Virus genome (UHGV): UHGV-0332176
Direction: 5' to 3' (one strand)
Source of the DNA: a virus
Length of the DNA stretch: 64,000 bases
The notes below the pieces were generated by a model that was not told the DNA's origin, ran no database searches, and saw only the letters and a list, made by a program, of their open reading frames with translations. Both the position numbers and the translations under genes were made by a program. Shown piece after piece: positions 4,177 through 34,081 of the stretch; positions within the stretch are counted from its first letter, which is position 1; each line of letters opens with the position of its first letter.

Positions 4177-5933
4177 TATTCACCCCAATCTACTATTGTT
4201 GCCGCAATATATGTTTTTAAAATTTTGTACATTTCCATCCAATATGTTGTATTTGTTAATTCTGTTCCTGCTGGAATATTATCTTGTAATCCTAAATAAC
4301 CATATTGAGCTGTACTATCTTCATATGTTACAAAATCACTAGCAATATATGCTTTACTTGAATCCCAATCACCTTTAGGATTAATACCTTTACCACTTGT
4401 AATATTTACTGGAGTTGGGTTTTCTAAACCACCATCATTTGTCCAAGATAATGTATAACCATTTTCCATAGGAGTTAATTCTGGAGTAAATGTTATACCT
4501 TCTGTACCAATATTAAGATTGTAAAAATATTTTAAATCTACTAATGTTCCAGCAGTTAATCCAGAAACTAATGTAACTGTTTTTTTATCTGTTCCTAATG
4601 TATAAGCTGCAGAAGTCAATTCTGTATTTCCAACATTTACTGATAAAACAGATTTATCATAAATCTCGTGAGAAGCTACAAAAGTTGTTTGTCCTTCTGT
4701 GGCTGTAAATGATTCAACAATTCTTTGTGCATAGTTAGTATAAATGGAAATAGTTTCTGGATTTTCTAATTCTTTATTATTAGTAAAAGAAATTGTAGCT
4801 TCGTGAGCATCTTGAGTTGTATGTGGTGTATAAGTTACACCGTCAGAAATAATAACGTTTTCTGGATTTGGTAAACCAACATCATTTGTCCAAGATAATG
4901 TAGTATCTAATCCAACTTTAGTTTGTGATGGAGTAAAAGTCGCACCATCTTTAATAACAACATTTTCTGGATTATCTAAATTTCCATTGTTTGTCCAAGA
5001 TAATGTAGTTTCTGTACCTGTTTTAGATTGTGAAGGAACAAAAGTTACACCATCATAAATATGAGAATCAGCAGGATTTTCTAAACCGCCATCATTTGTC
5101 CAAGACAATGTAGTATCTCTATCAACTTTATTAATATGAGGTGTATAAGTTGCACCAACTTGAACTTCTAAATTATTAAACCAAGATAATTGAACTCTTG
5201 TACCAACAGGAACAGCATTTTTTAATATAACTGTATCTAATGTTTCATTTAAATCCCATTCAGAATTCATAATAACACTATTTTCAATATTAACAGTTAT
5301 TAAATCTTTTTTAAGAACTTTTTCTCCTAATGGAAATTCAGTTGTACTTTCTTCAGTTGTCGTAAATGATTTAGAAACAACTTGTGATACATTAGTTGGA
5401 ATAATCATATTACCATAAACAATTACTTCAATATTTGTTCCTGGTTCTATTGGTTCATTAAAAGTAAGTGTTTTACCATCATCAGCTAATGTATAGTTAT
5501 TAGATTGCAATAAAAGGTTATTAATGTTAACTGATAATGATTCTTTATTAGCAACAGCATCATCTAATACCACAGATGTAATTTCATTTACTGGGTCATA
5601 AAAGAATTTAGAAGTCTTAAAATAACCTGCTAATAATTGCCATTTATTAAAATCAAATGGTTCTTGTGCTACGTGTTCTTGACGACATTGAAATAAACTA
5701 TTGTTATAAGAAACAATATCTCCTACACGATATGTAACACCTGGTGTCCATATAGTTGATGTATTTTCACCACCAGAACCACCACCAATGTCTTGTGCAA
5801 CTTCATCAGGTGTTAAATATTGAGCTAATCCATCTTGACTAATTTTAATATAAGTATTTGGATTATCTTTAAATGGTGATTGAAATTCATCAATCATACT
5901 TGTTGTAATTTTTATATTTGGTGTTCCAACCAT
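4176..5933 (-). CDS. tail fibre protein with a CBM5/12-like (chitin-binding type 3-like) module and 5 tandem ~35-aa repeats
   Basis: W.P...Y..GD.V.Y.....F.C...H......F....W.LL motif near the N-terminus; repeats T[FY]TP......TLSWTN.G.L.NPE at aa ~262-400 and ~480-515 are visible as DNA repeats (tcatttgtccaagataatgtagt, 3-4 copies). Confidence 0.65.
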   Translation of the reverse strand: MVGTPNIKITTSMIDEFQSPFKDNPNTYIKISQDGLAQYLTPDEVAQDIGGGSGGENTSTIWTPGVTYRVGDIVSYNNSLFQCRQEHVAQEPFDFNKWQLLAGYFKTSKFFYDPVNEITSVVLDDAVANKESLSVNINNLLLQSNNYTLADDGKTLTFNEPIEPGTNIEVIVYGNMIIPTNVSQVVSKSFTTTEESTTEFPLGEKVLKKDLITVNIENSVIMNSEWDLNETLDTVILKNAVPVGTRVQLSWFNNLEVQVGATYTPHINKVDRDTTLSWTNDGGLENPADSHIYDGVTFVPSQSKTGTETTLSWTNNGNLDNPENVVIKDGATFTPSQTKVGLDTTLSWTNDVGLPNPENVIISDGVTYTPHTTQDAHEATISFTNNKELENPETISIYTNYAQRIVESFTATEGQTTFVASHEIYDKSVLSVNVGNTELTSAAYTLGTDKKTVTLVSGLTAGTLVDLKYFYNLNIGTEGITFTPELTPMENGYTLSWTNDGGLENPTPVNITSGKGINPKGDWDSSKAYIASDFVTYEDSTAQYGYLGLQDNIPAGTELTNTTYWMEMYKILKTYIAATIVDWGE

Positions 5934-10950: not shown

Positions 10951-13707
10951 TTAATAACCTTTCGCTATCCAATTAACTGGGTCTGTAATATTTGTATCAA
11001 TAGTAAAACCCGTTTTATCAAAAGTCAAAATTTTTACACCATTTGCCATTACATATAAAGTTTTATTTATAAATGCTTCTGGAAAAGTAATAACTCCTGA
11101 AACTGGTGTAGAAGTTCCCCATTGTTCAATAATTTTTGTTGCAAATTTATTTTCATCTTCTACCCAATTTTCAATTTTATTAGAATATAAAATACCACCA
11201 AAGCCACCACTTTGAGCAATTGTATTTAAATCTTGAGTTGGGTAATTATCATATAAATGCCATTCATTATTACTTATAAATGACCCAATTTTTGCATATT
11301 TTGTATAACCAGATGGTAATACAGGTATTTCTTTTGTATCTGTACCAATATCTACAATACTACCATCATCATTACCAATTACAAATACATTAAATTTAGT
11401 ATTACGTTTCATACTATTTGAAAAAGTTGCTACAATATCAATTTCATTTGCACCAACAGCAATACCATATGAATTTTTAATTGTAATACCAATTGTTTTA
11501 TCTATTTGTGGAGTTGGAATTTCTACGTGTGAATGACCATAATCTTCATTTAATGCAGTAAATGAAGCTACAACATTACTTGGTTCACGAACCCAAATAT
11601 CAATATCTTTTGAACGATTTTCTAAACCTGAACCTTGATTATAAAAATCAATTGCTGTAACTCTTAATGGATATATTGCAGTATAATACCAAGTTGCTGA
11701 TGTAACATCAGTTAACCAACCATTACCTGTTTGTTTTAATCCATCCATTGCTCTATAACCTTCACGGTCAGTTTGTGCAGATGAAGTTATAACAGTACCT
11801 AATGGTTGAGTATTACTTGTCATTACTGGTTGTAACCAAGTTTCTTGTTCATCTTCTAATGAACTACCATTATTATTTCCTGATGTAAAAGGTTTATTAG
11901 GATTCTTAGTAATAATAGAACTAATTTCTAATAAAACTGTACCTGTTGAATCCATAATTGAACCTGGTTGAATAATAATTGTATCATTAGCTTCAATTTG
12001 ATATTCAGGATATGGTTGAGATATTGTACCATAAGTAATTGATGAAGTAAAACCATTTTGTGTATTTCTTAATTTAATATCACCTGCTAAAGTTTTTGTA
12101 TCAACTAAATTAAAATCTGATGCATCTTCATTAACTTGTGGAATTTTACCAGCATTATTAGTAAATGTTGTTAAAGATTTAATATTTAAATCTTCTTTTA
12201 AAGTATCTTTAGTAATTAACTCATAACCACTTTCATCTTGTTTTACTCTTAAATATTCTAATGAATGTGATGTTGGTCTTGGTAATTCTGTATTTATTAA
12301 AGTCATATTACCAAAAATTGTTACTTCAACTCGTGCTCCGCTTTCAATATTATCAGTAAATGTAATAATTGTTCCTGTTGTATCAATATTATAATTATCA
12401 GATTGAATTAAAGTATTACCAATATTAATCATTAATGAATTTTTATCATTAACTGAAACTGGTAATGTAATAGTATTTGTTTCATTAACTATATCAAAGA
12501 AATAATTTAATTTATTATAACCTGCTAAGAGTTGCCATTTTGAATTATCAAAAGGTTCGGAAGCAATATTATCTTCAAGACAAATATACATTGCATTATC
12601 ATAAATACAAACATTTCCTTTTGCAAATGATAATCCGACTTGCCATTGTATAATATTAGCTCTTTCATCATATGTATGCAATACCATATTTCCCATAGAT
12701 AAAACTTCAATTATTACACCAGCTGGAATTGGTTTAATAAAAGTAATTGTTTTATGGTCAGGTTCTAATGTATAATTTTGAGATTGTTGTAAAATGCCCC
12801 CAGCATTAATAATTACAACTTCTTTATTAGGAATTTCATCGGTTAAAGTAATTGAAGTTGTTTCTTCAGTTGCATTATAAAAAAATTCTCTTGCTGCTGA
12901 AAAACCTGCTAAAATTTTCCATTTACTTTCATCAAATCCAACATCAGATGTATGGTCTTCAATACATTCAAATAATGCATTTTCATAAATAACAACCGTT
13001 CCTTGTGAATATTCAGTATTTGGTGTCCAGTCAACTAATGTTGCATCATTTGTACCAATAATTGTAAAATTAGGATAATCACCAGTAATAGCAATATTTT
13101 TACCAGGATTTAATGAAATAATTTGGTCAGGTTTAGTATTTGTAACAATATTATCACGAGAAATTGCAATACCATCACCAGCTGTATAACTATTATTACT
13201 TGCTGAAATTAACACATTGTTTGAATCAGGAGAATATTCAACAGTAATATTTTGATTACCTGGCTTAATATTTTGTTGAACTAAATATTTTGAACTATCA
13301 GGAAAATTAACTTTAAGAGAAACAGTATTATCAGTTTCACTAGGTGTTACTGTAATAGAATCATCAGTCGCTTTAATATCTTCTTTTGTTAAAAAATCTT
13401 CTACTGGATGGTCAGTTGTTGAAATTGTAACTTTATTAGTATCTGGGTCAGTAGTTACAGTAATATTTGCACCTGCAACAATATCTTCAGATTTCAAATT
13501 ATCTTTTGTTAAATCTTCAACATCTTCAGCTGTTAAGTGAATTGATTTATTATCAATGTGTTCTTGAACAGTTTTTTCTGTTTCAGTTGTTGTTCCAGTA
13601 ACATCTTCAACAATAGTTGCTAAAGTTTCTGGATTAATTTTTTGATAATCATCACCATTTTTAACAACTAATTCAGCAATTGTTTTATTATCTAAAATAC
13701 TAACCAT
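10951..13707 (-). CDS. large tail fibre protein (918 aa) with two CBM5/12-like modules, a discoidin-like region and the shared C-terminal end
   Basis: Two W.P...Y..G.V.Y.N..F.C.EDH.S...FD.SKW..LAG modules; region REGYRAMDG...WLTDV...WYY similar to 9289..10473; ends ...WIAKGY. Confidence 0.65.
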   Translation of the reverse strand: MVSILDNKTIAELVVKNGDDYQKINPETLATIVEDVTGTTTETEKTVQEHIDNKSIHLTAEDVEDLTKDNLKSEDIVAGANITVTTDPDTNKVTISTTDHPVEDFLTKEDIKATDDSITVTPSETDNTVSLKVNFPDSSKYLVQQNIKPGNQNITVEYSPDSNNVLISASNNSYTAGDGIAISRDNIVTNTKPDQIISLNPGKNIAITGDYPNFTIIGTNDATLVDWTPNTEYSQGTVVIYENALFECIEDHTSDVGFDESKWKILAGFSAAREFFYNATEETTSITLTDEIPNKEVVIINAGGILQQSQNYTLEPDHKTITFIKPIPAGVIIEVLSMGNMVLHTYDERANIIQWQVGLSFAKGNVCIYDNAMYICLEDNIASEPFDNSKWQLLAGYNKLNYFFDIVNETNTITLPVSVNDKNSLMINIGNTLIQSDNYNIDTTGTIITFTDNIESGARVEVTIFGNMTLINTELPRPTSHSLEYLRVKQDESGYELITKDTLKEDLNIKSLTTFTNNAGKIPQVNEDASDFNLVDTKTLAGDIKLRNTQNGFTSSITYGTISQPYPEYQIEANDTIIIQPGSIMDSTGTVLLEISSIITKNPNKPFTSGNNNGSSLEDEQETWLQPVMTSNTQPLGTVITSSAQTDREGYRAMDGLKQTGNGWLTDVTSATWYYTAIYPLRVTAIDFYNQGSGLENRSKDIDIWVREPSNVVASFTALNEDYGHSHVEIPTPQIDKTIGITIKNSYGIAVGANEIDIVATFSNSMKRNTKFNVFVIGNDDGSIVDIGTDTKEIPVLPSGYTKYAKIGSFISNNEWHLYDNYPTQDLNTIAQSGGFGGILYSNKIENWVEDENKFATKIIEQWGTSTPVSGVITFPEAFINKTLYVMANGVKILTFDKTGFTIDTNITDPVNWIAKGY

Positions 13708-13820: not shown

Positions 13821-14336
13821 ATGGCATTATATCTCGGAAGTAATGAAGTTTCTCAAAAAGTTTTATTATTAGGTGGAAATAAAAGTGATATAGAAGTTGG
13901 TGATTTATGTTATTCATTAAGAACAGAAAAAGAAGGATGGTTATTATGTGATGGAGCAAGTTATTCAACAACTGATTATCCTGACTTATTTGCTGTAATT
14001 GGTTATACTTTTGGTGGTTCAGAAAATAATTTTAACGTTCCAAATTATAAAGGTAAATTTCTTCAAATGATTAATGATAATCAAACAATAGGTCAAAATA
14101 TTGAAGCTGGTTTGCCTAATATTACAGGTAATTTTAGTGCATATAATAATGCTGGTATAGATACTGCTAATGGGTCATTTTATTTATCTAATGCACAACA
14201 TATAAACTATGCTGGTAGGTCAGAAAGAGATACATATCTTTGTAATTTTGATGTATCTCGTTCTTCTTCAATATATGGAAAATCAAATACAGTACAACCA
14301 CCTGCTTCTATTGTTAATTATTTTATCAAATATTAG
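13821..14336 (+). CDS. phage tail collar domain protein (paralog of 6035..6559)
   Basis: GDLCYSLRTEKEGWLLCDGASYSTTDYPDLFAVIGYTFGG nearly identical to 6035..6559; ends ...PPASIVNYFIKY. Confidence 0.7.
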   Translation: MALYLGSNEVSQKVLLLGGNKSDIEVGDLCYSLRTEKEGWLLCDGASYSTTDYPDLFAVIGYTFGGSENNFNVPNYKGKFLQMINDNQTIGQNIEAGLPNITGNFSAYNNAGIDTANGSFYLSNAQHINYAGRSERDTYLCNFDVSRSSSIYGKSNTVQPPASIVNYFIKY

Positions 14337-14452: not shown

Positions 14453-14519
14453 ATTTATGTATTATTTCAGTCGCAGTCATTTCTGTTGCAAGGATAACTG
14501 TTTCCCCACTAAACATAAA

Positions 14520-14660
14520 AGCATTCATCCGTTAGGATTAAGCAGCAATTACATTATAGTTATAGTTAACGTTTTCGTTAGCATTCATTTTATTTTGAAC
14601 CGATATTGGTGGTATCTCGCCAGGTACATTATAGCCATTTTCAATAATGTTCAAAATTCC
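14520..14660 (-). pseudogene. possible decayed DGR variable-repeat-like remnant (non-coding)
   Basis: On the minus strand ...aatgctaacgaaaacgttaactataactataatgtaattgctgcttaatcctaacgg; its 3' part matches the VR 3' end/IMH region of the DGR target (cttgctgctaatgctaaggg) at ~19/21 positions with one indel; Asn-codon rich; no intact ORF. Confidence 0.3.
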
Positions 14661-14864
14661 GTCCGCCCCTAATACATTGATTTTTCATAATATTTTCCTG
14701 GTGGAGCGGCTGGGAGTTAAACCCAGGTCACTATCATTTACTTTGGGATAATTTATCAGCACCATTCAAAATTATTTATAAATTATTTTATTTTAATTGT
14801 CAATAAAATAATTTAGGACATAAATACAGTTATAAGCAATTCACAAATTTAATAAAGGATTATA

Positions 14865-15668
14865 ATGATATATTATGTTTATCAAATAACAAATAAAATT
14901 AATAATAAAATTTACATTGGAAAAAGAAAATATAAAGGAGAAAATCCTTTATTAGATTCATATATGGGGTCAGGAAAATTAATTAAAGAAGCAATTAAAA
15001 AATATGGAAAAAATAATTTTCAAAAAAATATTATTCAAAGTTTTGATAATGAAAATGATGCTTTTAAATTAGAAAAAGAACTTGTAACAAAAGAATTCTG
15101 TAACAGAAAAGATACTTATAATATTCACGAAGGTGGTACAGGAAGTTTTTCTCACATTAATAATAAACCAATTGAAAAAAGAGAAAATATTATAGCTGTT
15201 AGAAAATTATTAAATTCAGGAGTAAAATTTGGTGGAAAAAAATATTTTACAGAAGAAACTTATCAAAAAATTAGTAATTTTAATAAAGAACGATGGAAAA
15301 CTTGGAAAGAAAAACCAGAATTAATGCCAGATTTTTATATAAAACCTCGTACAGAAAAATTTAAACAACATTTATCAGAAATTTTTAAAGGTCAAAATAA
15401 TCCTAATTTTGGTAAACATTGGTATATTCATAAAAAAGCTATTAATATTAATGAAAAGAAAATGTTTTTTGATAATGAAATACCACAAGGTTTTATTACA
15501 GTAAAAGAATGGAAAGATTTACATAAAAATAAGAAAAATAAAGCATATGGAAAACATTGGTATAATGATGGTAAACAAAATTATTTTTTATCCCCAGATG
15601 ATGAAAAAATTAAAATATTAAGTAAAGGGCGTATTGGTACTCTTTTTAAAAAAATTGAAAGTAATTAG
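14865..15668 (+). CDS. GIY-YIG homing endonuclease (Seg/I-TevI-like)
   Basis: N-terminal IYYVYQITN...KIYIGK (GIY...YIG motifs); C-terminal repeated NPNFGKHWY / AYGKHWYNDGK DNA-binding motifs typical of phage GIY-YIG endonucleases. Confidence 0.8.
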   Translation: MIYYVYQITNKINNKIYIGKRKYKGENPLLDSYMGSGKLIKEAIKKYGKNNFQKNIIQSFDNENDAFKLEKELVTKEFCNRKDTYNIHEGGTGSFSHINNKPIEKRENIIAVRKLLNSGVKFGGKKYFTEETYQKISNFNKERWKTWKEKPELMPDFYIKPRTEKFKQHLSEIFKGQNNPNFGKHWYIHKKAININEKKMFFDNEIPQGFITVKEWKDLHKNKKNKAYGKHWYNDGKQNYFLSPDDEKIKILSKGRIGTLFKKIESN

Positions 15669-15705
15669 AAAAAGATTTATATTAAATTTTAATGGTTCAA
15701 AGTTT

Positions 15706-15823
15706 ATTCGTTTTGCAAGCTGGTGGTAATTGGAATGATTCATCTAACTACGGAGTTGGTTCTCGTAATAGTAACAATTCTCGTGCTAATTTGAACGACA
15801 ATAACTCGGTGCGAGGGCTTGAT
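15706..15823 (+). repeat. DGR template repeat (TR)
   Basis: Ungapped match of ~115 nt to the reverse complement of 17400..17517; 19 differences, every one at a TR adenine (19 of 29 adenines, 0 of ~86 non-adenines); 11 AAY codons in the VR reading frame. Confidence 0.88.
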
Positions 15824-15948
15824 ATAATCTCTTTTTTGAGCATTAGCTGAATTTTGAACCTTGTCTTAATAGGCTAAACATCAAAATTGTAAAAATAATA
15901 TTAGTAAAAGAATTTGAAAATATTATTTTTCAATTAGAGTAAAAATAA

Positions 15949-17298
15949 ATGAAAAGAATTAATAATTTATGGGAAGAATTTACTTCACAAGAACATTGGT
16001 TTGAAGCAAGAAAAAGAGCTTTACGAGGTAAAGTTAAAAAATATTGTGTCAAAGCTATTATGAGAAAAGGTGACGAATATTTAGAAAAAATTCGTCAAGA
16101 TGTTATTAATGGTACTTTTGAATTTAAGGGTTATAAAGAACATACTATTTATGAACCTAAAGAACGTAAAATATTTGTAGCAAGAATTGAAGAAAGAATT
16201 TATCATTGGGCATCAATGATGATTACTGAAAGAATTTTTGAACCAACATTTATATTTGATAGCTATTGTTGCCGTAAAAATAAAGGACAACATAAATGTT
16301 CAGATAAATGCAAAGAAATTGTTAAACATAATAATTATTGTTTAAAATTAGATATTTCTAAATTTTATCCAAATATTAATCATAAAATATTAAAAGAGTG
16401 TTTAGCAAGAAAAATTAAAGATATAAGATTTCTCAATGCTTTATACGCAATTATTGATAGTCATAATAAGGATACTGGAAAAGGTATTCCAATTGGTAAT
16501 TATTCTTCTCAAATTTTTGGAAATATTTATATGACTAAATTAGATATGTTTGTTAAGCACACTTTAAAATGCAAACATTATTTAAGATATTGTGATGATT
16601 TTTGTTTATTTTCAAATGATAAAAAGTATTTAAATTGGTGCAAAGAAAAAATTATTGAATTTGTTACTAATGAATTAGATATGAAATTAAGCAAATGTGA
16701 TTTATTTAAAACTAAACAAGGTGTTGATTTTGTTGGATATAGACATTTTCCTCAATATACTTTAGTTAGAAAAAGAACTGCTAAAAAAGTTAAAAAGAGA
16801 ATGTTAAAAATTCAATATAAATTAAAAAATTATGAATTAACTCAAAAAGAATTATTTAGAATGAATGGGCAAGTTGCCAGCTCATATGGTTGGTGTAAAC
16901 ACGCTGATTCTTATAGATTTATGAAAAAATATAAAATTGAAGAATGTTTAAAGGAGATTATAATGAGATATGCAGAATTTAAAAACAAATTACATACAAA
17001 TAAAATGTTATCAATGAAAATTAATGATTTTATTAATAAAGAAATAACAATAACAGGTTGGGAATATTATAAAAAGAATGATAATAATGAAGATGATAAA
17101 AATAAAGAAGCAGTTAAAACTGTTAAAATACATTTAATATATAATGGTGAAGAAAAAATTATTATAACTAAAGCATCGGTTATTATCAGAGATTTAGAAG
17201 AAATTTCACAATTAGAAAAAGAAGAAAATACAAAGATATTTCCCTTTGATGCAACATTAAAGAAAGATACTAAACGAAATTATTTTTATTTTGAATAA
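15949..17298 (+). CDS. DGR-type reverse transcriptase
   Basis: RT motifs: TIYEPKERKIFVA (motif 1), LKLDISKFYPNI (motif A), GIPIGNYSSQIFGNIYM (DGR-specific IGxxxSQ in place of QGxxxSP), LRYCDDFCLF (YxDD), VDFVGYR; lies between TR and VR; extra ~110-aa C-terminal extension. Confidence 0.9.
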   Translation: MKRINNLWEEFTSQEHWFEARKRALRGKVKKYCVKAIMRKGDEYLEKIRQDVINGTFEFKGYKEHTIYEPKERKIFVARIEERIYHWASMMITERIFEPTFIFDSYCCRKNKGQHKCSDKCKEIVKHNNYCLKLDISKFYPNINHKILKECLARKIKDIRFLNALYAIIDSHNKDTGKGIPIGNYSSQIFGNIYMTKLDMFVKHTLKCKHYLRYCDDFCLFSNDKKYLNWCKEKIIEFVTNELDMKLSKCDLFKTKQGVDFVGYRHFPQYTLVRKRTAKKVKKRMLKIQYKLKNYELTQKELFRMNGQVASSYGWCKHADSYRFMKKYKIEECLKEIIMRYAEFKNKLHTNKMLSMKINDFINKEITITGWEYYKKNDNNEDDKNKEAVKTVKIHLIYNGEEKIIITKASVIIRDLEEISQLEKEENTKIFPFDATLKKDTKRNYFYFE

Positions 17299-17302
17299 AG
17301 AC

Positions 17303-17387
17303 GGGCATCGCAAGGCTGCCCTGTCGTTTGCTATATGACCGCACAAGGCGGTCTAAAAAGAAAAGGATTTGAGTTTTACTCAAATCC
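17303..17387. terminator. three consecutive GC-rich hairpins between the RT stop and the target gene stop (probable bidirectional terminator / DGR VR-proximal hairpins)
   Basis: gggcatcgcaaggctgccc; gaccgcacaaggcggtc; ggatttgag-ttttact-ctcaaatcc (target stop codon lies in the loop of the third hairpin); GC-rich relative to the AT-rich surroundings. Confidence 0.45.
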
Positions 17388-18455
17388 CTTAGCATTAGCA
17401 GCAAGCCCCCGCACCGAGCTACCGTCGCTCAAAGTAGCACGAGAAGCGTTACAATCACGAGAACCAACCCCGCAGATAGATGAACCATCCCAAGTACCAC
17501 CAGCCCGCAAAACGAAACCTTCACCGTAAAAAGAACCTTTACCCATATCAGTATTAATAACAGTCCAACCACTTCCACCAGATGCACCAGTTGAATTTAA
17601 ATATTGCCATAAAGCACCGCAACAATCTTCTATACCATAAACAGAAATCATTCTTCTACCAGCAGTATCTACGTGTCCACCAGTTGTTACTGGGTCAGCA
17701 GCACCAGAAATAGCAGTTCCTTGATTAGAACCAAATGCATATGCAGTAAATTCATTATCATTAGCTAAATGTTTACCAACTGAAAATAAATCTTCTACGT
17801 GATTTTGATAATAACGAGTATCAGTAATTGTTGCACCAAAAACTGATTTGGTATTTAATCCAGTTCCTGATTGTAAATAAATATCACACCATTTATCAAT
17901 TACATCAATATATGCCATTCCATCAACATCAGCAAATCGTGGACGAAATGAGATACAAGATATTGAATTTGGTAATATATCGCCAGCATTATATCCAGAT
18001 AATAAATGTCCAGAAATTGTTCCAACATTAGCACATACAGTATGGAATGAAGATAACCATTGAGTATTAGATGTTGTATATCCTGTTGGAGCATCTGAAT
18101 TTAATGAACAAATTAATTCTTTATCAGAAGTAATATAAATGTAATAAGTTTTTCCAGCTTGTAAAGATGTTCCAGTATCTAAAATAGAAACGGGATTAAT
18201 TTCTTTGGCTTCATAATTTTCATAATTAACTAATTCATTATTAAAAACTAAAGGTATATTACAAGGTTCAAGAATAATTGTTGTTTTATCAAAACAATTA
18301 GTTTTACCTTCTCTAAATAATTGAGTATAAGATTTACCTTTAATTGTATTATCTAATTCTTTAATATGAACAAAACGAAATGTAGGAGCAAATCCGCCTA
18401 ATAATGTTTGTAATCCATATATACGATTAATTTGAACTTTTGAAATATCTATCAT
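17376..18455 (-). CDS. DGR target (variable) protein with C-terminal C-type-lectin/FGE-like variable domain; probable receptor-binding protein
   Basis: Last 38 codons are the VR; C-terminus ...GEGFVLRAGGTWDGSSICGVGSRDCNASRATLSDGSSVRGL resembles the CLec-fold VR of Mtd-like DGR targets (GG.W..G...G); upstream region Gly/Thr-rich. Confidence 0.85.
   Translation of the reverse strand: MIDISKVQINRIYGLQTLLGGFAPTFRFVHIKELDNTIKGKSYTQLFREGKTNCFDKTTIILEPCNIPLVFNNELVNYENYEAKEINPVSILDTGTSLQAGKTYYIYITSDKELICSLNSDAPTGYTTSNTQWLSSFHTVCANVGTISGHLLSGYNAGDILPNSISCISFRPRFADVDGMAYIDVIDKWCDIYLQSGTGLNTKSVFGATITDTRYYQNHVEDLFSVGKHLANDNEFTAYAFGSNQGTAISGAADPVTTGGHVDTAGRRMISVYGIEDCCGALWQYLNSTGASGGSGWTVINTDMGKGSFYGEGFVLRAGGTWDGSSICGVGSRDCNASRATLSDGSSVRGLAANAKGFE
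17400..17517 (-). repeat. DGR variable repeat (VR) at the 3' end of the target gene
   Basis: See TR; relative to TR the codon changes are Q>R, N>T, N>D, D>G, N>I, Y>C, N>D, S>C, N>A, N>T, N>S, N>G, N>S, D>A plus 2 silent; homology ends abruptly 3' of gggcttg (IMH-like boundary). Confidence 0.88.
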
Positions 18456-21830: not shown

Positions 21831-21906
21831 TGGCACTCCCAAGAGGATTCGAACCCCTAATTTAACGTCCGTAGCGTTATGGTTTTTCCAGTTAGCCTAT
21901 AGGAGC
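21831..21906 (-). tRNA. tRNA-Arg (anticodon ACG)
   Basis: Minus-strand cloverleaf: acceptor gctccta/tgggagt (two G-U pairs), anticodon stem taacg/cgtta with loop ctACGga, T-arm agggg-ttcgaat-cctct, encoded CCA; D-arm irregular. Confidence 0.6.
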
Positions 21907-21910
21907 AATT

Positions 21911-22567
21911 TTATTCATAATCATCAATAAAATCTAAATCACCTTCTCTTGATTCTATTGCACGAATGCATTGATTACATAATAAACCTAAATCTTTTTC
22001 ACGATGTAATTCAGACATTGGATATTCTTCACCACACCAACTACATTCTGCATATTCTTCAAAATCTTCATTATCAAAATTATCTTCATTAATATTTTCT
22101 GTATGTTCTTCTTGTTGAGGATTATCACCCCAAAGTTTATTTTGAACTAACATTACAATATTTCCTAATCTTTGTTTAGCAGTTGGTTCATCAATTTTAC
22201 CATCTTCTAATGCACGATAAATTTCTTCAGCTTTTTTTACTAATTCATCATTATGAGGTAAATTACTATTAATAAATTGTAATTGCATCCAAGGATTAAC
22301 TTCAGAACGATGTTCATATTCTACCAACATTTTTTTAATTACTGGGTCAGCAACTTCATTAACATTAGTATAATTTTCAACATTTTCTGTTAATACAGAA
22401 TAAACACCATCTTCTAAACCAGAAGCTATTTCATTATTTTTTTCTTTTGCTTCTGAAATAATATTTTCAATAACATTGATTGATTTATTTTCATTTAATA
22501 ATTTACGACCATAAATATATCCAAATGCATATTCTCTTGTTTTATCTTTTAATTGATTAATATCCAT
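21911..22567 (-). CDS. hypothetical protein with C-terminal zinc-ribbon (CSWCG...CNQC)
   Basis: ORF track; two CxxC pairs at the C-terminus. Confidence 0.4.
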   Translation of the reverse strand: MDINQLKDKTREYAFGYIYGRKLLNENKSINVIENIISEAKEKNNEIASGLEDGVYSVLTENVENYTNVNEVADPVIKKMLVEYEHRSEVNPWMQLQFINSNLPHNDELVKKAEEIYRALEDGKIDEPTAKQRLGNIVMLVQNKLWGDNPQQEEHTENINEDNFDNEDFEEYAECSWCGEEYPMSELHREKDLGLLCNQCIRAIESREGDLDFIDDYE

Positions 22568-22609
22568 TTTTTAAAATCTCCATAATATATATTATTATTT
22601 ATATTAATA

Positions 22610-22969
22610 TTAACAAGAACGATTTTTAATATGTTTAATTAATTTATCAAAAGAATCAAATACCCAATAGTCATAACCATATGATAAAATATAGTCTTTA
22701 TGAAAATATCCATTTTCTTCTAATTTATTTTTAAGTTCTTTTAATAATTTTAATTGTTCTTTTGTTTGGATATACCGATAATCAATCATTAATGAAGATG
22801 AACCATTAACAATTCTAATCCAACCCAAATCTAATGTTTGTTGTGTAGCATCTTCATCAGAATTAAATGTTTTTTCTAAAACTTTTTCAATAAATTGTTT
22901 ATGACCGAAATCATTCATTATTGTAAAAACTTCATTTGTTGGTGAAATCCAAAATCCATATGGTTTCAT
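22610..22969 (-). CDS. hypothetical protein
   Basis: ORF track. Confidence 0.4.
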   Translation of the reverse strand: MKPYGFWISPTNEVFTIMNDFGHKQFIEKVLEKTFNSDEDATQQTLDLGWIRIVNGSSSLMIDYRYIQTKEQLKLLKELKNKLEENGYFHKDYILSYGYDYWVFDSFDKLIKHIKNRSC

Positions 22970-23151
22970 TAATTTTGTTCCTTAAATTTACAAAATAGTG
23001 GATTAGTATCTCCACCGCCTACATAACAAACAACTTCTTCATTTTCACATCTAAGTATTGGAATATAAGTAAAATTACCTTCTCTCACTATTTCACAAGT
23101 CATTGTTAAACCAATTATTAAACAAAACAATTTTTTCATTTTATTCTCCAA
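22969..23151 (-). CDS. small putative lipoprotein
   Basis: Signal-peptide-like N-terminus MKKLFCLIIGLTMTC (lipobox-like Cys). Confidence 0.35.
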   Translation of the reverse strand: MENKMKKLFCLIIGLTMTCEIVREGNFTYIPILRCENEEVVCYVGGGDTNPLFCKFKEQN

Positions 23152-23203
23152 TAAATTATTTAAATAAAATATATCATAAAAAAATTATTTGTCAATAGAA
23201 AAA

Positions 23204-24151
23204 TTAAAATGGATATTTCCCTATTATTTTTTTGATTTCAATAATGCAAGATATAAAATTAATATCTGGAAAAGCTACAAAATTATGCTGATATAAATAT
23301 TTGGCAATTATAATTAAAATATCATCATATAATTTTTCTTCCGTTGTAATCATTGATAAATGATTATACATAAATTGATATAATGATTCATATTCTTCAT
23401 TAGCAATATTTTGAGCTAATAATTTTTTAAGTGTAAAGCAATCATTATTAATATTATTAATTACTTCACTAAATTTATCATATGCATATGCTGCATCATT
23501 TTTTAAAGGTTGTAAAATATTATTAATTGTATTTTGGTCAATTGCATTAATACAAGCTCTTAAATCAGGCTGATAAATTTCAACATATTTAACGACATCA
23601 TTCATATCATTAACAATAATACGTTCATCTTGTAAAATTTTTGCAATACGTCCAACAAATTCTTCAAATTTTAATGTATTAAAATGATAACGTTGACATC
23701 TTGATGTAATAGCAACATCAATTTGAGCAATATTATTTGTTGTAAAAATAAATCTACACCAATTAGAATATTCTTCTAATACATATTTTAATGATGATTG
23801 AGCTTGTTTAGAAGCTCTTTCAAATTCTTCTAAAATAATAAGTTTTACAGTATCTTTTTCTAATGGTGGAACAGATGCATAATCAATAACTTTACGCATA
23901 TCATCAATAGAAGTCTTATCAGACATATTATAACGAATATAATCAGTTAATTGTAATTCATTAATTAAAACATTAATCGATGAAGATTTTCCTGTTCCAG
24001 GAGGACCATAAAAAATTAAATGTGAATCAATAGTTTTATTAGCAATCCACGTTTTAAATTTATTTTCATATTCATCATTAATATATACTAAATCAGAAAC
24101 AGTTTTTGGTCTATATTTTTCAGTTAATATTTGGTTCATTTTCTTCCTCAT
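23204..24151 (-). CDS. sliding clamp loader ATPase subunit (T4 gp44 / RFC small subunit-like AAA+)
   Basis: EKYRPKTVSDLV...LIFYGPPGTGKSS Walker A in RFC-box context; DEAD-like ILEEFE; SRC-like TSRC. Confidence 0.75.
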   Translation of the reverse strand: MRKKMNQILTEKYRPKTVSDLVYINDEYENKFKTWIANKTIDSHLIFYGPPGTGKSSSINVLINELQLTDYIRYNMSDKTSIDDMRKVIDYASVPPLEKDTVKLIILEEFERASKQAQSSLKYVLEEYSNWCRFIFTTNNIAQIDVAITSRCQRYHFNTLKFEEFVGRIAKILQDERIIVNDMNDVVKYVEIYQPDLRACINAIDQNTINNILQPLKNDAAYAYDKFSEVINNINNDCFTLKKLLAQNIANEEYESLYQFMYNHLSMITTEEKLYDDILIIIAKYLYQHNFVAFPDINFISCIIEIKKIIGKYPF

Positions 24152-24590
24152 TAATAATTTCTAAAGGTTTAATATCAAAAGCACATTCTGGGTATACAGC
24201 AACCCCTTTTATATCATAATCATAAATTTCATTTTTTTCATTAATATTTCCAACACCGAATGAACAACAATATAAAGAAATGTTATTAGATAACATATTA
24301 TTAACTATGTTAGAAGCAACAGAAAATTTTTCACTACAAATTTCTCCCTCAATCCATAAATTATTATTTTCCATATAAACTTTTGATACTTTACCACAAA
24401 TAATTTCAGGTGGTATAAAACCATCTGAAGAAGGAAAATCTAATGTAATAGGAATTACATTGTTTTTTAAATTATTATATACCTTTTCCACTTCTTTTAA
24501 TGGATATATTCTATTATTCCTATTTAATTCATCTGCTTTTAAACAACAACTTTTAATTTTTACATTTTTATTCATTTGATATTTCCTCAT
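24120..24590 (-). CDS. hypothetical protein (position compatible with a clamp-loader small subunit)
   Basis: Immediately upstream of and overlapping the clamp-loader ATPase gene on the same strand; no motif support. Confidence 0.25.
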   Translation of the reverse strand: MRKYQMNKNVKIKSCCLKADELNRNNRIYPLKEVEKVYNNLKNNVIPITLDFPSSDGFIPPEIICGKVSKVYMENNNLWIEGEICSEKFSVASNIVNNMLSNNISLYCCSFGVGNINEKNEIYDYDIKGVAVYPECAFDIKPLEIINEEENEPNIN

Positions 24591-24873
24591 TATTTTTATA
24601 AATGCTAAAACTATCTGAAATTAATTTTGCATCACCTCTGACATAAGATTCACTATAATCAATATCAAAATCAACTTCTTTTAAAAATTTTAAAAACTTT
24701 TTTTCATTAACATCTTTAAATTCGCAAATATCTTCAATTGTTGATTTTTCTAGCAATACAAATGCAACATTACCTTCTTTATCAAATTGCATTTGATAAA
24801 TTGGAATTGAAAAACGTCTGTTATCATAAATAAAATCACAAAACATACTAAATTCTGGCATTTTTTCAGTCAT
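24568..24873 (-). CDS. hypothetical protein
   Basis: ORF track. Confidence 0.35.
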   Translation of the reverse strand: MTEKMPEFSMFCDFIYDNRRFSIPIYQMQFDKEGNVAFVLLEKSTIEDICEFKDVNEKKFLKFLKEVDFDIDYSESYVRGDAKLISDSFSIYKNNEEISNE

Positions 24874-24877
24874 TATT

Positions 24878-25246
24878 TTACCTCATTAATATTAAACCAA
24901 ATATTCCTAAACAACATATACCAATAAATGATAAAATTGTCAAGAAAATTATTTTTAACGGATTGAATTTCTTTTTCGTTGTATTCCATTCTTCCCAATG
25001 TTTTTGAACAAAACATTTTAATTCAATATCATTTGGTAAATGGTCTTTTCCAAATAAAGCATATAATTCTGGATATTTTCTTTTATCAAAAATTTTATTT
25101 GGAACCCATTTAATATAACTTTCGGGAACTGCTCCATCAACAGTCATCGTAAAACCAATTGGAGTTGTATCTTCAATAGGAATATTTTTATTAAAATCCC
25201 ATAAATCTTTTCTTTTGGTAGCTTTAATAACCGTAATTCTTTCCAT
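24878..25246 (-). CDS. hypothetical protein with C-terminal transmembrane segment
   Basis: C-terminus LKIIFLTILSFIGICCLGIFGLILM. Confidence 0.35.
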   Translation of the reverse strand: MERITVIKATKRKDLWDFNKNIPIEDTTPIGFTMTVDGAVPESYIKWVPNKIFDKRKYPELYALFGKDHLPNDIELKCFVQKHWEEWNTTKKKFNPLKIIFLTILSFIGICCLGIFGLILMR

Positions 25247-25258
25247 AATATTAATCCT

Positions 25259-25636
25259 TTATGTATTATTGAATATACCAAATACTTTTTCTTTTTCCCA
25301 ACACGCAACTGAACCTTCTTCACTACCATCGGGAAGTTTAAAACAATCAGTATCTCTTAAAACATCTCCTAATGATGTATAAACAAATTTCCAACCTGAT
25401 TCTTTTAATTTATTAATTTTTTCTTCTGATTCTTTTAAATAATCTATCCATTCTTGATTAAAAGGGAGTCCATATTTTTCAGAATCTTCTTTTTGAACTT
25501 GAATTTCTTCTTCAATAGTTCTAAAATTCTCAGGAACACATAAATCTGGTTGTTCTGTATATACTTCCCATTCTTCAAAATCAGGATATTCTTCCATTCT
25601 TTTTTGAATTTCTTTTAATAATGTTTTAACTTTCAT
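25259..25636 (-). CDS. hypothetical protein
   Basis: ORF track. Confidence 0.35.
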   Translation of the reverse strand: MKVKTLLKEIQKRMEEYPDFEEWEVYTEQPDLCVPENFRTIEEEIQVQKEDSEKYGLPFNQEWIDYLKESEEKINKLKESGWKFVYTSLGDVLRDTDCFKLPDGSEEGSVACWEKEKVFGIFNNT

Positions 25637-25910
25637 TTGAATATCTCTTTGCTTTAATTGTTAAACCATCTGCCATTATATTTGTAATTTTAAAAGGTAT
25701 ACCTGAATCAGAATTAAATATATATCCTATTTGAATTTTAGATGGTAATAAATTTTTTCTAAATTCCATTGATTTTTTATTAGGAACTGCATATAAAGAT
25801 TCCCAATAATATTCTAATTCTTGTGCATCTTCTTTTGAAATTATTACGTGATAATTTCTTTTCTTTTCAAAGTATGTTTTATTAAAAATTTTTAATAACC
25901 ATTTAAACAT
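25626..25910 (-). CDS. hypothetical protein
   Basis: ORF track. Confidence 0.35.
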   Translation of the reverse strand: MFKWLLKIFNKTYFEKKRNYHVIISKEDAQELEYYWESLYAVPNKKSMEFRKNLLPSKIQIGYIFNSDSGIPFKITNIMADGLTIKAKRYSNES

Positions 25911-26319
25911 TTTTCAATTCCTCATTTAAAATTTGTTGAGCATATTCACCTCTATCAGCAATTCTTTCAATAATTCGTGCTGAAGGGTCATTTGTATTCA
26001 TCATAGCATACTTTAATGTTTCAGTATCTTTATAAATATGCTTTCCTGTTGCATAAAAATTTAATCCTTTTATAAGAGTTTCAATTATATCATTACATTG
26101 ACATACTTGATAAATTAAATCATCCAAATAACACCATTCATCACAATGTTCTAAATAATTCCAAGCTATATCTGTACCAACACCTCTATCATTAAGATAG
26201 AAACAATCATATTTTGGTTCTTGATTGTCTATATCATCACCAAAAGGTGTATTAAATTTAAATACAATGTAAGAATAAGTTATAGGTTCTTCTTTATTTG
26301 TATGCCAAATATTATCCAT
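25903..26319 (-). CDS. hypothetical protein
   Basis: ORF track. Confidence 0.35.
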   Translation of the reverse strand: MDNIWHTNKEEPITYSYIVFKFNTPFGDDIDNQEPKYDCFYLNDRGVGTDIAWNYLEHCDEWCYLDDLIYQVCQCNDIIETLIKGLNFYATGKHIYKDTETLKYAMMNTNDPSARIIERIADRGEYAQQILNEELKNV

Positions 26320-26677
26320 TATTTTCTCCTGAATATTGAACTTTTATATTAAATATTTGTCCTGTTAATTTTGTTAAAGGTGCAACTGTAACTAAAGTAT
26401 GATGACACCATACAGGAAAACAATAACCTAATATTTTTTGACAATATTTTTTATACCTTCTCCAAGATATTTTATTAAAATGAGTCTGAAAATATAAAAA
26501 ATCGGGATGTTCTTGGCAAAAAATATCATAATCAATTTCCCTGCTTAAATGTCTAAAAGCATATTCTTCACTAAAAATATTATACCCAATACGGTCTTCA
26601 AACATTGTTTTTTTATATTCTCGTTGAGAAAAAATATCTTTTAAAATATCATAAAGTCGTATCATCAATAATTCCAA
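26312..26677 (-). CDS. hypothetical protein
   Basis: ORF track. Confidence 0.35.
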   Translation of the reverse strand: MELLMIRLYDILKDIFSQREYKKTMFEDRIGYNIFSEEYAFRHLSREIDYDIFCQEHPDFLYFQTHFNKISWRRYKKYCQKILGYCFPVWCHHTLVTVAPLTKLTGQIFNIKVQYSGENNG

Positions 26678-27035
26678 ATTCTTTTAATTGTGTTGGCATT
26701 GTTTTAGAAACAGCCATTAAACCTTCTTTTAATGATTTAGGAGAAATATACCATAAAGTTTCATCTTTTTCATTAATTGTCATAGCCATTGAAGTTGACC
26801 AATGTCCGTGTCTTAATAAAACCCAATCTCCAACATCAATATAATTAATATTATCAGATTTATAAAAAACCTTTGCCCATCGTGGTCTAGCAAAATGTCC
26901 TTCATAATCCATTTTTTCAGCTGGTACAATAAAACCAGATTTTAAAGTTCTTTCACCATATTCTATATTTTTAACAAATAATGAATTTGGTAAACATTCA
27001 ATATAATGTGGTATAGTTACTCCAAAATCAATCAT
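26649..27035 (-). CDS. hypothetical protein
   Basis: ORF track. Confidence 0.35.
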   Translation of the reverse strand: MIDFGVTIPHYIECLPNSLFVKNIEYGERTLKSGFIVPAEKMDYEGHFARPRWAKVFYKSDNINYIDVGDWVLLRHGHWSTSMAMTINEKDETLWYISPKSLKEGLMAVSKTMPTQLKEFGIIDDTTL

Positions 27036-27043
27036 TTTAATCC

Positions 27044-27397
27044 TTAATTTTCTTCTTTAGTTTCATTTTCATCTGTTGCTTCAATTTTCTTTTTTGATGG
27101 TTTTGCAACTTTAATAGTTTGGTTTTTAATTAATGATTCAACAGTCATATCTTTTAACTCATCTTCAATTTTTGCGTTTTCTTCAATATTATCTTTCATA
27201 TTAACAGTTGCTTGCTGAATCGTATTAGCATTATAATATTTTTCGAGCATTTCTTCTCTGGTTTCAACAATTTTTCCACCACGACCGAGCCTATCACCAC
27301 GACCATTCATATGAGCATTCCCTAATGCAACAGTTTTTTCATTTTTTTTAGCTAAAGAAATCATATCAACTTCTTTACCTCTATAACTTTTAACCAT
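27044..27397 (-). CDS. hypothetical protein
   Basis: ORF track. Confidence 0.35.
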   Translation of the reverse strand: MVKSYRGKEVDMISLAKKNEKTVALGNAHMNGRGDRLGRGGKIVETREEMLEKYYNANTIQQATVNMKDNIEENAKIEDELKDMTVESLIKNQTIKVAKPSKKKIEATDENETKEEN

Positions 27398-27771
27398 TAT
27401 TTTTCTCCTTTTTCAAACATTTTACAATGACAATGACCTGTTTTTTCCATATCTTCTTTAATGAATACACAAGGACACCTAATATCTTCTAATTCACTCG
27501 GTTTATTTTTTTGATATATGGTATATTTACAAGGACAATAACCTTCACATTTGTTTACAGCATCATACATTTTGTCAAAAATTTTACCTAATTTGTATCC
27601 ATTTTCTTTTGCATAATTTTCATACCATTCTTTTGTATGTAATTGAGCTTCATTTTGAATATTATAAATAAATTCAATTATTTTTATCTTTTTTTCTTCT
27701 GATATTCCATCACCTAAAAACTCGTTCATTTTCGGTAATAAAATATTAACATAATCTTCTTTTTTTAACAT
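27397..27771 (-). CDS. hypothetical Cys-rich protein (CPC...CPC...HCHC cluster)
   Basis: Metal-binding-like motif CEGYCPCKY...IRCPCVFIKEDMEKTGHCHCKMF. Confidence 0.35.
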   Translation of the reverse strand: MLKKEDYVNILLPKMNEFLGDGISEEKKIKIIEFIYNIQNEAQLHTKEWYENYAKENGYKLGKIFDKMYDAVNKCEGYCPCKYTIYQKNKPSELEDIRCPCVFIKEDMEKTGHCHCKMFEKGEK

Positions 27772-28239
27772 TTAATTTTCTCCATTATTTTTTAATGATT
27801 TTACATCAAAAACAAACCCTTTACAATATAATTCATCATCTTCTATAATATCAAACCATTCACAAGGAATATTTGTTTCATATTTAAATTGAGCATCAGA
27901 AGGATGTTTAATTTTAATAAATGTATTTTCATTTAATTTTAAAGCATTTTTAATTGTTTTATAAAAAACAGGATAATCATAATTAATTGTATCTAATAAA
28001 TCATCAATTTTCTTAATACTTACAAATTCAGATTCTTCTGGATACCAAATAAAATGTGCATCTGAATAACAATCATATTCAAGTCGTAATGCTCCATTTA
28101 ATTCAAATAAATCATCGCTATAACCATATGCAATAACTATTCCATTTTCTTTCATTTCTTGAAGTAAATCTTTATCAAAATTATCACCATAATTATGATT
28201 ATTTAATAAGTCAGCATATTCTTTTAATGTTCTTTTCAT
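27772..28239 (-). CDS. hypothetical protein
   Basis: ORF track. Confidence 0.35.
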   Translation of the reverse strand: MKRTLKEYADLLNNHNYGDNFDKDLLQEMKENGIVIAYGYSDDLFELNGALRLEYDCYSDAHFIWYPEESEFVSIKKIDDLLDTINYDYPVFYKTIKNALKLNENTFIKIKHPSDAQFKYETNIPCEWFDIIEDDELYCKGFVFDVKSLKNNGEN

Positions 28240-28251
28240 CTTTCAATTTCC

Positions 28252-29277: not shown

Positions 29278-29381
29278 ATAATATATTCTATATCTAATTC
29301 ATCACTAAATGAATCAAACTTTCCTAATTCTATGTCATATTCATTTTCTTCATTATACATAAAATTTCTCAAAAAATAAAA

Positions 29382-30209: not shown

Positions 30210-30296
30210 ATTTTTTCCTTACACTCATATATTCTTATAATTTTTAACATACAAAAATGCCTTTGTCAAGTTAATTTAACAAAGGCATTAAATATA

Positions 30297-31247: not shown

Positions 31248-31437
31248 TTTTTATCTCTCCTTAAAAAGTTAATAAGCAAAGTTAAACTTTTTACTCGTAA
31301 AAGTTAAATTTTAAATCTAACTTTGCTCAATTAGTTTATTTAGTATAATAAATAGGAAAAAATTAATCAAAATAAAAAATAGTATTTTTTACTTCTATTT
31401 TTGCAAGTATATTGGGGAAATTAAATCAAAGATAAAA

Positions 31438-31524
31438 TGGTGGGCATACCGAGAGTCGAACTCGGATGAGGATACCCCCGACAGATTTTAAGTCTGTTGC
31501 GTCTACCAATTCCGCCATACGCCC
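31438..31524 (-). tRNA. tRNA-Leu (anticodon UAA), type II with long variable arm
   Basis: Acceptor gggcgta/tatgccc, D-arm gcggaattggtagacgc, anticodon stem acaga/tctgt with loop ctTAAaa, variable arm cgggggtatcctcatcc, T-arm ccgag-ttcgact-ctcgg, encoded CCA. Confidence 0.8.
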
Positions 31525-31762
31525 TTAATAATTTTATTTATATTATATTTAAATATTATTATCAATATATTATAAATCACTTCTGCTCTGCAAAAACATT
31601 TTTGCTTGTATATTTAAATTATCATCCTTATTTAACTGCTACCTCAATTAACGGACATATTATTTGCAAGAGTAATTAATCCTTGGAAAATAAATGGTAG
31701 CTTTATTTCTGTAACTAATTACTGTGATTACCTCTACGTTCATATATATAACATTATATTTT

Positions 31763-32293: not shown

Positions 32294-32337
32294 TAAAAAT
32301 CTCCATAAATTATATATGGAGATTACACTATATTTAA

Positions 32338-33796: not shown

Positions 33797-33826
33797 TTAA
33801 TATCAATAACTCCCACATAAAAATTT

Positions 33827-33913: not shown

Positions 33914-33920
33914 TATAAAA

Positions 33921-33995: not shown

Positions 33996-34000
33996 ATTAA

Positions 34001-34075: not shown

Positions 34076-34081
34076 AAATAT

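Follow-up and report, generated by a model that had tools for sequence, protein, structure and literature searches.

Can a diversity-generating retroelement (DGR) work when no avd gene accompanies it, when its target gene lies on the opposite strand, and when a homing endonuclease gene stands immediately beside its template? This question is raised by the viral genome UHGV-0332176, of which we analyzed a stretch of 64 kb (hereafter, the window); it belongs to an uncultured human-gut jumbo phage of ~285 kb, and the region has a G+C content of 25%. A first-pass annotation of the window had described a non-canonical DGR whose template repeat (TR) and reverse transcriptase (RT) gene occupy the plus strand, with a convergent target gene on the minus strand, no open reading frame (ORF) resembling the accessory protein Avd, and a GIY-YIG endonuclease gene that could have invaded the cassette, perhaps at the cost of an avd gene or of a second target, or that could mobilize the element. 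We compared this homing locus with its relatives on metagenomic contigs, labeled L001 to L037. The explanation that we consider best, and on the whole probable, is that of an active Avd-less DGR, in which a module of the RT resembling oligonucleotide/oligosaccharide-binding (OB) folds might serve in place of Avd, and to which the homing endonuclease is unrelated.

The strand arrangement was confirmed by the coordinates and by the repeat itself, as the TR and the variable repeat (VR) of the target form a 115-nt inverted repeat with 84% complementarity (Table 1). All 18 mismatches between them fall on TR adenines (13 are G, 3 are C, and 2 are T in the VR), and the 86 TR positions that are not adenine are, without exception, identical in the VR; 15 of the 18 differences affect positions 1–2 of target codons. 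With 29 adenines in 115 nt, the arithmetic probability that 18 of 18 mismatches would all fall on adenines is <1e-10. The same adenine-specific pattern was seen in nine further strains. The target ORF matches Pfam mtd_2nd (E 1.3e-10) and is 31% identical over 257 amino acids to Mtd of BPP-1, in an alignment that extends into the start of the VR, and would thus encode a putative ligand-binding domain of the C-type lectin type; its stop codon lies 26 nt beyond the VR end. The TR and VR share a G+C-rich end of homology, CTCGGTGCG(A/G)GGGCTTG (~17402–17418), which resembles an initiation of mutagenic homing (IMH) sequence and beyond which the flanks diverge. A hairpin with a 13-bp stem (17362–17390), which includes the target stop codon, starts 11 nt past this end after the VR, with no such hairpin after the TR. 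It is kept in the L003/L029 lineage, in which the intergenic region is only ~80% identical. The RT and target stop codons are 77 nt apart, and this gap has a G+C content of ~50%, against 25% for the genome, and contains three hairpins. Of these, only the VR-proximal one may suit the role of a DGR hairpin, and the others may be bidirectional terminators.

Strain comparison bears on whether diversification is still going on. Nine strains whose targets are at least 99% identical outside the VR carry eight different VRs, and 25 of the 27 VR positions that vary among them correspond to TR adenines. One of the two remaining sites is a polymorphism of the TR itself (index 74, T/C), at which each VR matches its own TR; likewise, L032 has a change at index 82 of its TR, and the VR of that strain mirrors it. 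Since the VRs follow the non-adenine polymorphisms of their own TRs, retrohoming appears to have continued after the TR alleles diverged, in endonuclease-positive strains as well. This population evidence indicates that the DGR is complete and currently active without a cassette-encoded Avd. The first-pass annotation had left it open whether the element functions without Avd; the question is largely answered by near-identical strains whose VRs differ almost only at TR adenines, with an Avd acting from elsewhere in the genome as the rival that we weigh below. One 206-kb contig (3300045988_152776, the same as ERZ780212 NODE-15; L004/L008) starts within, or ~30 nt before, the TR, and over its positions 1–146 the "TR" bears VR-like A-to-N substitutions, such that the TR/VR differences there are not adenine-specific. 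This oddity is probably an assembly chimera or a collapse at the repeat, the alternative being a TR overwritten by VR sequence; we used this contig, as well as L012 (see below), with caution as evidence.

The absence of an Avd-like ORF from the locus was upheld by profile searches. For the 71 small ORFs of the whole window, no Avd family was among the matches listed (25 families each, from Pfam and NCBIfam), and a hidden Markov model (HMM) made from 120 homologs of the BPP-1 Avd (bAvd) detected no Avd among the 302 stop-to-stop ORFs of the window, the best score being noise (E 0.057, 7.9 bits, an antisense ORF of 50 amino acids). The small ORFs around the DGR encode acidic, membrane-type, or beta-rich products. 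As individual candidates for Avd, we rejected a 52-residue ORF at 15692–15850, which is the reading frame of the TR; the ORFs of 132, 54, 83, and 139 residues beside the target, which have no Avd match and an unsuitable composition; and, in L015, an acidic 121-residue ORF between target and TR, which has no Pfam match. The gene content of 13.8–19.4 kb, a TR–RT core without avd, HRDC, MSL, or CH1, thus corresponds to architecture A1 of Wu et al.

Such an arrangement has precedents. In the survey by Wu et al. 2018 (NAR 46:11; PMC5758913), avd was absent from 26% of DGRs, architecture A (a TR–RT core with no accessory gene) accounted for 29%, RT lineage 3 was entirely without avd, DGRs with components on different strands were described, and ~20% of RTs were extended at the C-terminus by as many as ~150 amino acids without recognizable motifs. 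The DGR of crAssphage LMMB (PMC7290462), the RT of which its authors assign to lineage 3, is a published avd-less case. The layout is therefore non-canonical in the sense that it is unlike the BPP-1 prototype, but it is not new, because avd-less and two-strand DGRs have already been cataloged. We conclude that the cassette is a further instance of the known Avd-less class of DGRs, to which the adjacent endonuclease is incidental. An Avd, or another known accessory protein such as HRDC or MSL, might instead be encoded elsewhere in the genome and act in trans; our search covered 64 kb of ~285 kb, Avd families are very divergent, and jumbo phages have room for dispersed genes. We regard this as unlikely, given that Pfam, NCBIfam, and the bAvd HMM gave no match in the window, that the profile searches of Wu et al. 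in genomes with avd-less cassettes revealed no avd elsewhere, and that ten of ten members of the clade described next lack a cassette-linked avd and possess the OB-like module.

What, then, could take the place of Avd? The RT (RVT_1, E 1.3e-15; phrog_1423, E 1.8e-101) has phage DGR RTs as its best database relatives and is 29% identical to the BPP-1 RT (bRT; E 2e-42), with its PIGNYSSQ aligned to PIGSLTSQ of bRT, and is ~110 residues longer than bRT. We found that its residues 341–449 are homologous to separate ORFs of 92–97 amino acids that overlap, abut, or directly follow the RT stop codon in six loci, namely Caudoviricetes sp. vir525 (L001), L013, L017, L036, L037, and L035, the copy in the last of these being frameshifted; in the window and in L003, L014, and L015, RT and module are fused. 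The homology is documented by pairwise E-values of 4e-7, 1e-8, and 8e-24, by an hhalign probability of 99.7%, and, for intact copies, by E-values of 1e-23 to 3e-34 with a module HMM. Fused or separate, the module was present in ten of ten clade members, the RTs of which are down to 42% identical to that of the window; in each of the ten, the target is of the Mtd type or was not seen, and no Avd is linked to the cassette. Either a frameshift or a sequencing error divides the module ORF of L035 (4504–4793) between two frames; the cluster to which the RT before it belongs comprises 1262 member sequences.

An AlphaFold2 model of the C-terminal domain (predicted local distance difference test, pLDDT, 82) matched OB folds and folds like that of single-stranded DNA-binding protein (SSB) in a fold library, with weak scores. 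The domain has a neutral, not a basic, isoelectric point (pI) and no significant sequence match in Pfam, PDB, or PHROG, and as a query it recovered only close relatives, five by word-indexed search and four by exhaustive HMMER search of 1.84 billion representatives. In the Avd-containing BPP-1 cassette, the module was not detected; bbp4 of BPP-1 was considered as a homolog and rejected (hhalign probability 0.6%). The existence of one module in both fused and split forms indicates a functional partnership with the RT. We tentatively suggest that the OB/SSB-like module could be the accessory factor of this clade and a candidate substitute for Avd, a proposal that we put forward as plausible, short of likely. 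It is also possible, to a degree that we take seriously, that the domain is a thumb extension of the RT, or derives from an unrelated phage gene that follows it, with no Avd-like role: the neutral pI, the weak fold scores, and the lack of a Pfam, PDB, or PHROG match would agree with this, and motif-less extensions had already been noted in ~20% of RTs by Wu et al. A domain of that kind would fit less well with the retention of the module in all ten clade members despite RT identities as low as 42%, with the partnership indicated by its fused and split forms, and with its non-detection where Avd is present.

The TR is separated from the RT gene by a 127-nt spacer that matches Rfam RT-14 (RF02921) at 36.6 bits, below the gathering threshold of 48.1. 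L009, L011, L013, and L015 gave RT-14 matches at the same TR–RT location, all of them sub-threshold (39.7, 41.4, 25.0, and 25.2 bits among the four). A UAGUA...GAA core is common to the spacers and, in the window, lies within a hairpin (15891–15930). TR–RT spacers from diverged cassettes aligned too poorly for MAFFT/RNAalifold analysis to yield a consensus structure. In BPP-1, the spacer contains RT-10, and some RT motifs have been proposed to be DGR spacer RNAs (Weinberg et al. 2017, PMC5737381). The promoter-like site upstream of the TR is kept in endonuclease-less relatives, its version in L003 being TTGAAT-17-TATATT. We envisage that a rightward transcript from this promoter would contain the TR, the RT-14-like spacer, and the RT gene, and that the RT would make cDNA from the TR RNA, misincorporating opposite adenines. 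This cDNA would then replace the VR of the convergent Mtd-like gene, beside the G+C-rich homology end and the hairpin, and the RT's own OB/SSB-like domain of ~109 residues would supply the binding to nucleic acid or to a partner that is the role of Avd in BPP-1.

We then addressed the endonuclease gene, which does end 38 nt before the TR. Its translation contains the YVY...YIG...E...N motifs, and it matches NUMOD3 above the Pfam cut-off (E 4.5e-5), SegE_GIY-YIG (E 3.6e-5; 24.4 bits, cut-off 25) and GIY-YIG (E 0.006; 17.3 bits, cut-off 22.6) below theirs, and phrog_314, "homing endonuclease" (E 5.8e-39). The closest protein families are the T4 Seg-type free-standing endonucleases, and the DNA of the catalytic module is ~71% similar to that of segH; the last ~8 codons run into resident sequence. 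A group I intron as the home of the gene was rejected, as Rfam found no such intron in 13.0–19.5 kb and gave a permuted transfer-messenger RNA (tmRNA) gene in this interval. As judged from its sequence, the endonuclease is a free-standing, Seg-like, intergenic gene that is unrelated to the DGR. Traces of other mobile elements were noted in the vicinity of related DGRs: an HNH endonuclease gene lies ~1.8 kb downstream of the RT gene in L014 (3277–3558), and a DnaB gene upstream of the DGR in L015 (59–1813) has a weak intein-splicing Pfam match.

The suspicion that the endonuclease invaded the locus proved correct. It is missing from four related contigs (L003, a 286-kb IMG/VR contig, L007, L009, and L011), one of which is 99.9–100% identical to the window on both sides, and comparison with these phages identifies it as an insertion relative to a junction between tmRNA and TR at which no intact avd is found. 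In each of them, the promoter region of the tmRNA (…TGTCAATA) directly abuts the TR promoter region (TTTTT·ATTGAA…TATATT), and the empty site, between two divergent promoter-like elements, is ~30 nt long, compared with ~835 nt in the window. These relatives have the same avd-less, convergent layout. Thus, the insertion destroyed nothing. In BPP-1, avd stands directly upstream of the TR, the very place that the endonuclease occupies here, which could suggest that an avd gene or a second target had been destroyed and the DGR left crippled or a relic. In addition to the short empty site without an avd ORF, distant relatives with co-directional target, TR, and RT likewise have no avd; the window contains neither a second VR nor a decayed TR remnant, as assessed by an A-masked sliding comparison and short-word blastn; and VRs are actively diversified in endonuclease-positive strains. 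We consider a destroyed avd or target extremely improbable.

The flanks of the insertion are mosaic. Compared with the window, L009 has 6 differences in 5464 nt on the left side and none on the right side (16288–17079); between these, over 14624–16287, the tRNA-like domain of the tmRNA is replaced and the endonuclease is absent, and the part at 15660–16287, which takes in the junction, the TR, the spacer, and the initial 339 nt of the RT gene, has 56 differences (~9%), only 2 of them in the TR. The cassette (14809–15643) together with the adjoining tmRNA segment (14624–14808) is 100% identical in eight endonuclease-positive contigs from different samples. L029 has flanks of the L003 type, 88–92% identical to the window, yet its cassette is 100% identical, within an identical tract of 14524–15762. 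The right-hand limit of identity varies by strain (~15684, 16202, or 16287), and the target gene and the 3′ part of the RT gene are never within the identical tract. Homing of free-standing endonucleases with variable co-conversion, as in the T4 Seg enzymes, leaves such patterns. The identical cassette with variable right-hand breakpoints thus bears what appears to be the signature of homing with co-conversion, and we conclude that the endonuclease gene is a selfish element, recently inserted, that left the DGR unbroken and that the DGR does not need.

Presence and absence alone give no direction, and endonuclease-positive phages are very common (the exact endonuclease protein is in 696 index blocks), so the endonuclease-containing state might be ancestral and the endonuclease-less contigs deletion derivatives. 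An identical cassette of 1.0–1.24 kb in lineages that are ~10% diverged on both sides argues against this, as do the same endonuclease-less junctions in both lineages, accompanied by a coherent alternative tmRNA allele (94–118 bits, compared with 77–88); moreover, a deletion would not yield the divergent flanking tract relative to L009. We judge it quite improbable that the endonuclease was there first. In L012, a low-coverage contig, the sequence at 1250–1521 switches from the phage RT to a bacterial acyl-carrier-protein gene near window position 16326, which marks it as a chimeric assembly; in its phage part, the endonuclease stands beside an L009-type TR/RT allele.

The gene on the other side of the insertion had been overlooked by the first-pass annotation. 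It encodes a permuted tmRNA (Rfam RF04321, 87.5 bits, gathering threshold 47; RF01849, 77.4 bits, gathering threshold 50); ARAGORN gave no tmRNA at 14469–14807. From the alignment, we read the tag as ANENVNYNYNVIAA-stop, and from the sequence, minus-strand promoter elements (-35 TTGACA at 14805–14800 and -10 TATAAA). Endonuclease-less relatives keep intact tmRNA genes (94–118 bits; L003 7311–7713 and L009 5310–5714). Two alleles of the tRNA-like domain circulate, with 58–75% identity over ~185 nt, depending on how extra nucleotides are counted; the endonuclease-less allele has ~40–60 extra nucleotides and a higher Rfam score than the 77–88 bits of the window. The other allele is strictly linked to the endonuclease, with which the right-hand 185 nt of the tmRNA gene (14624–14808, the tRNA-like domain) always travel. 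The tmRNA gene is a neighbor of the DGR, not a part of it. Given that the tmRNA segment is the constant passenger, we infer that endonuclease-less genomes would be cut within their tmRNA gene or next to it, with the DGR as a bystander; the left limit of co-transfer, which is fixed inside the tmRNA gene, may point to the same place.

These tracts also bear on whether the endonuclease has a function within the DGR, such as nicking the target or mobilizing the whole cassette as a unit. It lies on the same strand as the TR, only 38 nt away, and the recombination tracts linked to it extend into the TR and RT gene. Nevertheless, VRs are equally well adenine-diversified in endonuclease-less strains (20 of 21 TR/VR mismatches are at A in L003), and the endonuclease therefore does not belong to the DGR. 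In addition, the invariant flank is the tmRNA segment, the right-hand tract often ends before the TR (~15684), the target gene and the RT 3′ part always remain outside, and the closest families are free-standing. A role in the DGR is accordingly very improbable. The earlier suggestion that the endonuclease mobilizes the cassette holds in the weak sense that tracts reach the TR and the RT 5′ end, and fails otherwise, since it is a tmRNA segment, not the DGR, that is always carried along. As we picture it, the GIY-YIG gene would have entered the gap of ~30 nt that separates the divergent promoters of the tmRNA and the TR, and would spread between co-circulating phage lineages via double-strand-break repair, each time dragging along the tRNA-like domain of the tmRNA and, to variable extents, the TR and the RT 5′ end. 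Taken jointly, we offer as a possibility, with some reserve, that an Avd-less clade with Mtd-type targets and an RT-14-like spacer RNA uses an unannotated OB/SSB-like module for Avd, while a tmRNA-targeting endonuclease shuffles its TR/RT alleles by co-conversion when phage lineages co-infect.

Among described DGRs, those of architecture A1 and lineage 3, such as crAssphage LMMB, resemble the present one in having the TR just upstream of the RT gene and no avd, a tail-fiber target with a C-terminal VR and a G+C-rich homology end, and a motif-less extension at the C-terminus of the RT. The crAssphage LMMB RT is 34.5% identical to that of the window, an indirect hint that the latter may belong to lineage 3. 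The usual form is target–TR–RT, whereas here the target is on the opposite strand and convergent with the RT gene; furthermore, the VRs described for lineage 3 are CLec3, whereas the Mtd-type (BPP-1-like) target of the window belongs to a kind linked by Wu et al. to CLec1. BPP-1 (mtd-avd-TR-brt; architecture B of Wu et al.) has a homologous target (31%) and RT (29%), adenine-specific transfer from TR to VR, a hairpin just downstream of the VR, and a structured TR–RT spacer. It differs in having Avd, whereas the window has an inverted target, no Avd, and an RT to which an OB-like domain is added at the C-terminus; the gene after brt, bbp4, shows no homology to this module, and the spacer of the window resembles RT-14, not RT-10. 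The closest cassettes that we found, with RTs 40–60% identical, are those of vir525 (BK063673, Methanosarcinales-associated), L013, L017, and L035–L037, which likewise lack avd and have a target resembling Mtd along with the C-terminal module. In these, target, TR, and RT share one direction and an ORF of its own, 92–97 amino acids long, encodes the module, whereas in the window the target is convergent and the module fused. With SegA–H of T4-like phages, the endonuclease shares an N-terminal GIY-YIG domain with NUMOD3 repeats, an intergenic site, presence/absence polymorphism, and tracts of variable length over which flanking markers are co-converted (e.g., marker exclusion by SegF/gene 56). 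It differs in its host, a gut jumbo phage, and in its site, which has a tmRNA gene on one side and a DGR template on the other.

Much of this is ordinary, as Avd-less and two-strand DGRs have been cataloged and free-standing homing endonucleases are common in large phage genomes. The OB-like module and the resolved homing mosaics are the parts of chief further interest. The phage is very common in the gut, and its many near-identical strains provide clean natural evidence of an active Avd-less DGR. At least since the survey of Wu et al. 2018, it has been an open question how cDNA is primed and targeted in Avd-less DGRs, and the OB-like module is a concrete, testable candidate. The endonuclease polymorphism, in turn, is a well-resolved natural case of homing with variable co-conversion tracts, by which homing endonucleases can exchange DGR template, RT, and tmRNA alleles between phage lineages.

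Table 1 Position, strand, and basis of the features at and around the DGR (window coordinates)
Feature	Coordinates	Strand	Basis or remark
Tail-fiber gene	10951–13707	-	918 aa
Tail-collar gene	13821–14336	+	
Permuted two-piece tmRNA gene	14469–14807	-	Rfam RF04321, RF01849
Mosaic (putative co-conversion) tract relative to L009	14624–16287	unstranded	Comparison with endonuclease-less L009
Inserted endonuclease cassette, ~835 nt	14809–15643	+	Pfam/PHROG matches; missing from L003, L007, L009, L011
GIY-YIG/NUMOD3 homing endonuclease ORF, 267 aa	14865–15668	+	
Promoter-like site TTGAAA-17-TATATT	15655–15683	+	Consensus match only
TR, 29 adenines in 115 nt	15707–15821	+	
TR 3′ end and TR–RT spacer with RT-14-like RNA element	15778–15930	+	Rfam RF02921, sub-threshold
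RT ORF, 449 aa	15949–17298	+	RVT_1
RT core, aa 1–340	15949–16968	+	RVT_1; phrog_1423
RT C-terminal domain, aa 341–449, predicted OB/SSB-like	16969–17298	+	Homology, AlphaFold2 model, fold matches
Three G+C-rich hairpins between convergent stop codons	17300–17390	-	z = -5.8 versus shuffles; terminator-like
Mtd-like tail/receptor-binding target gene, 359 aa	17376–18455	-	Pfam mtd_2nd
VR, 3′ end of target	17402–17516	-	

The exact endonuclease protein was found on human-gut contigs of 204–288 kb. One contig of 284 kb (L033; ERZ27311596 k119_54750) is identical to the window over the 8.8 kb compared, and megablast with 24 kb of the window gave no DNA-level match among GenBank phages. The nearest GroEL proteins are those of Bacteroides phages (48% identity). 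Elsewhere in the window (21831–34155 and 48794–50431) are six tRNA genes (Arg, Leu, Cys, two Gly, and Trp) and genes for GroEL, GroES, an RNA 2′-phosphotransferase (Tpt1/KptA, E 3e-50), and a LuxR-type response regulator, together with a weak DarT-like match, an auxiliary gene set that is typical yet rich for a jumbo phage. A 1014-residue protein (39596–42640, minus strand) combines an Mtd N-terminal domain with a pectate-lyase-like beta-helix and CBM5/12, which also occurs in two further tail-fiber-like proteins (4176–5933 and 10951–13707); no VR was found in any of these three proteins. The 918-residue tail-fiber gene contains direct repeats (12519–13012) with 384-nt spacing and 73–78% identity, which point to an internal domain duplication.

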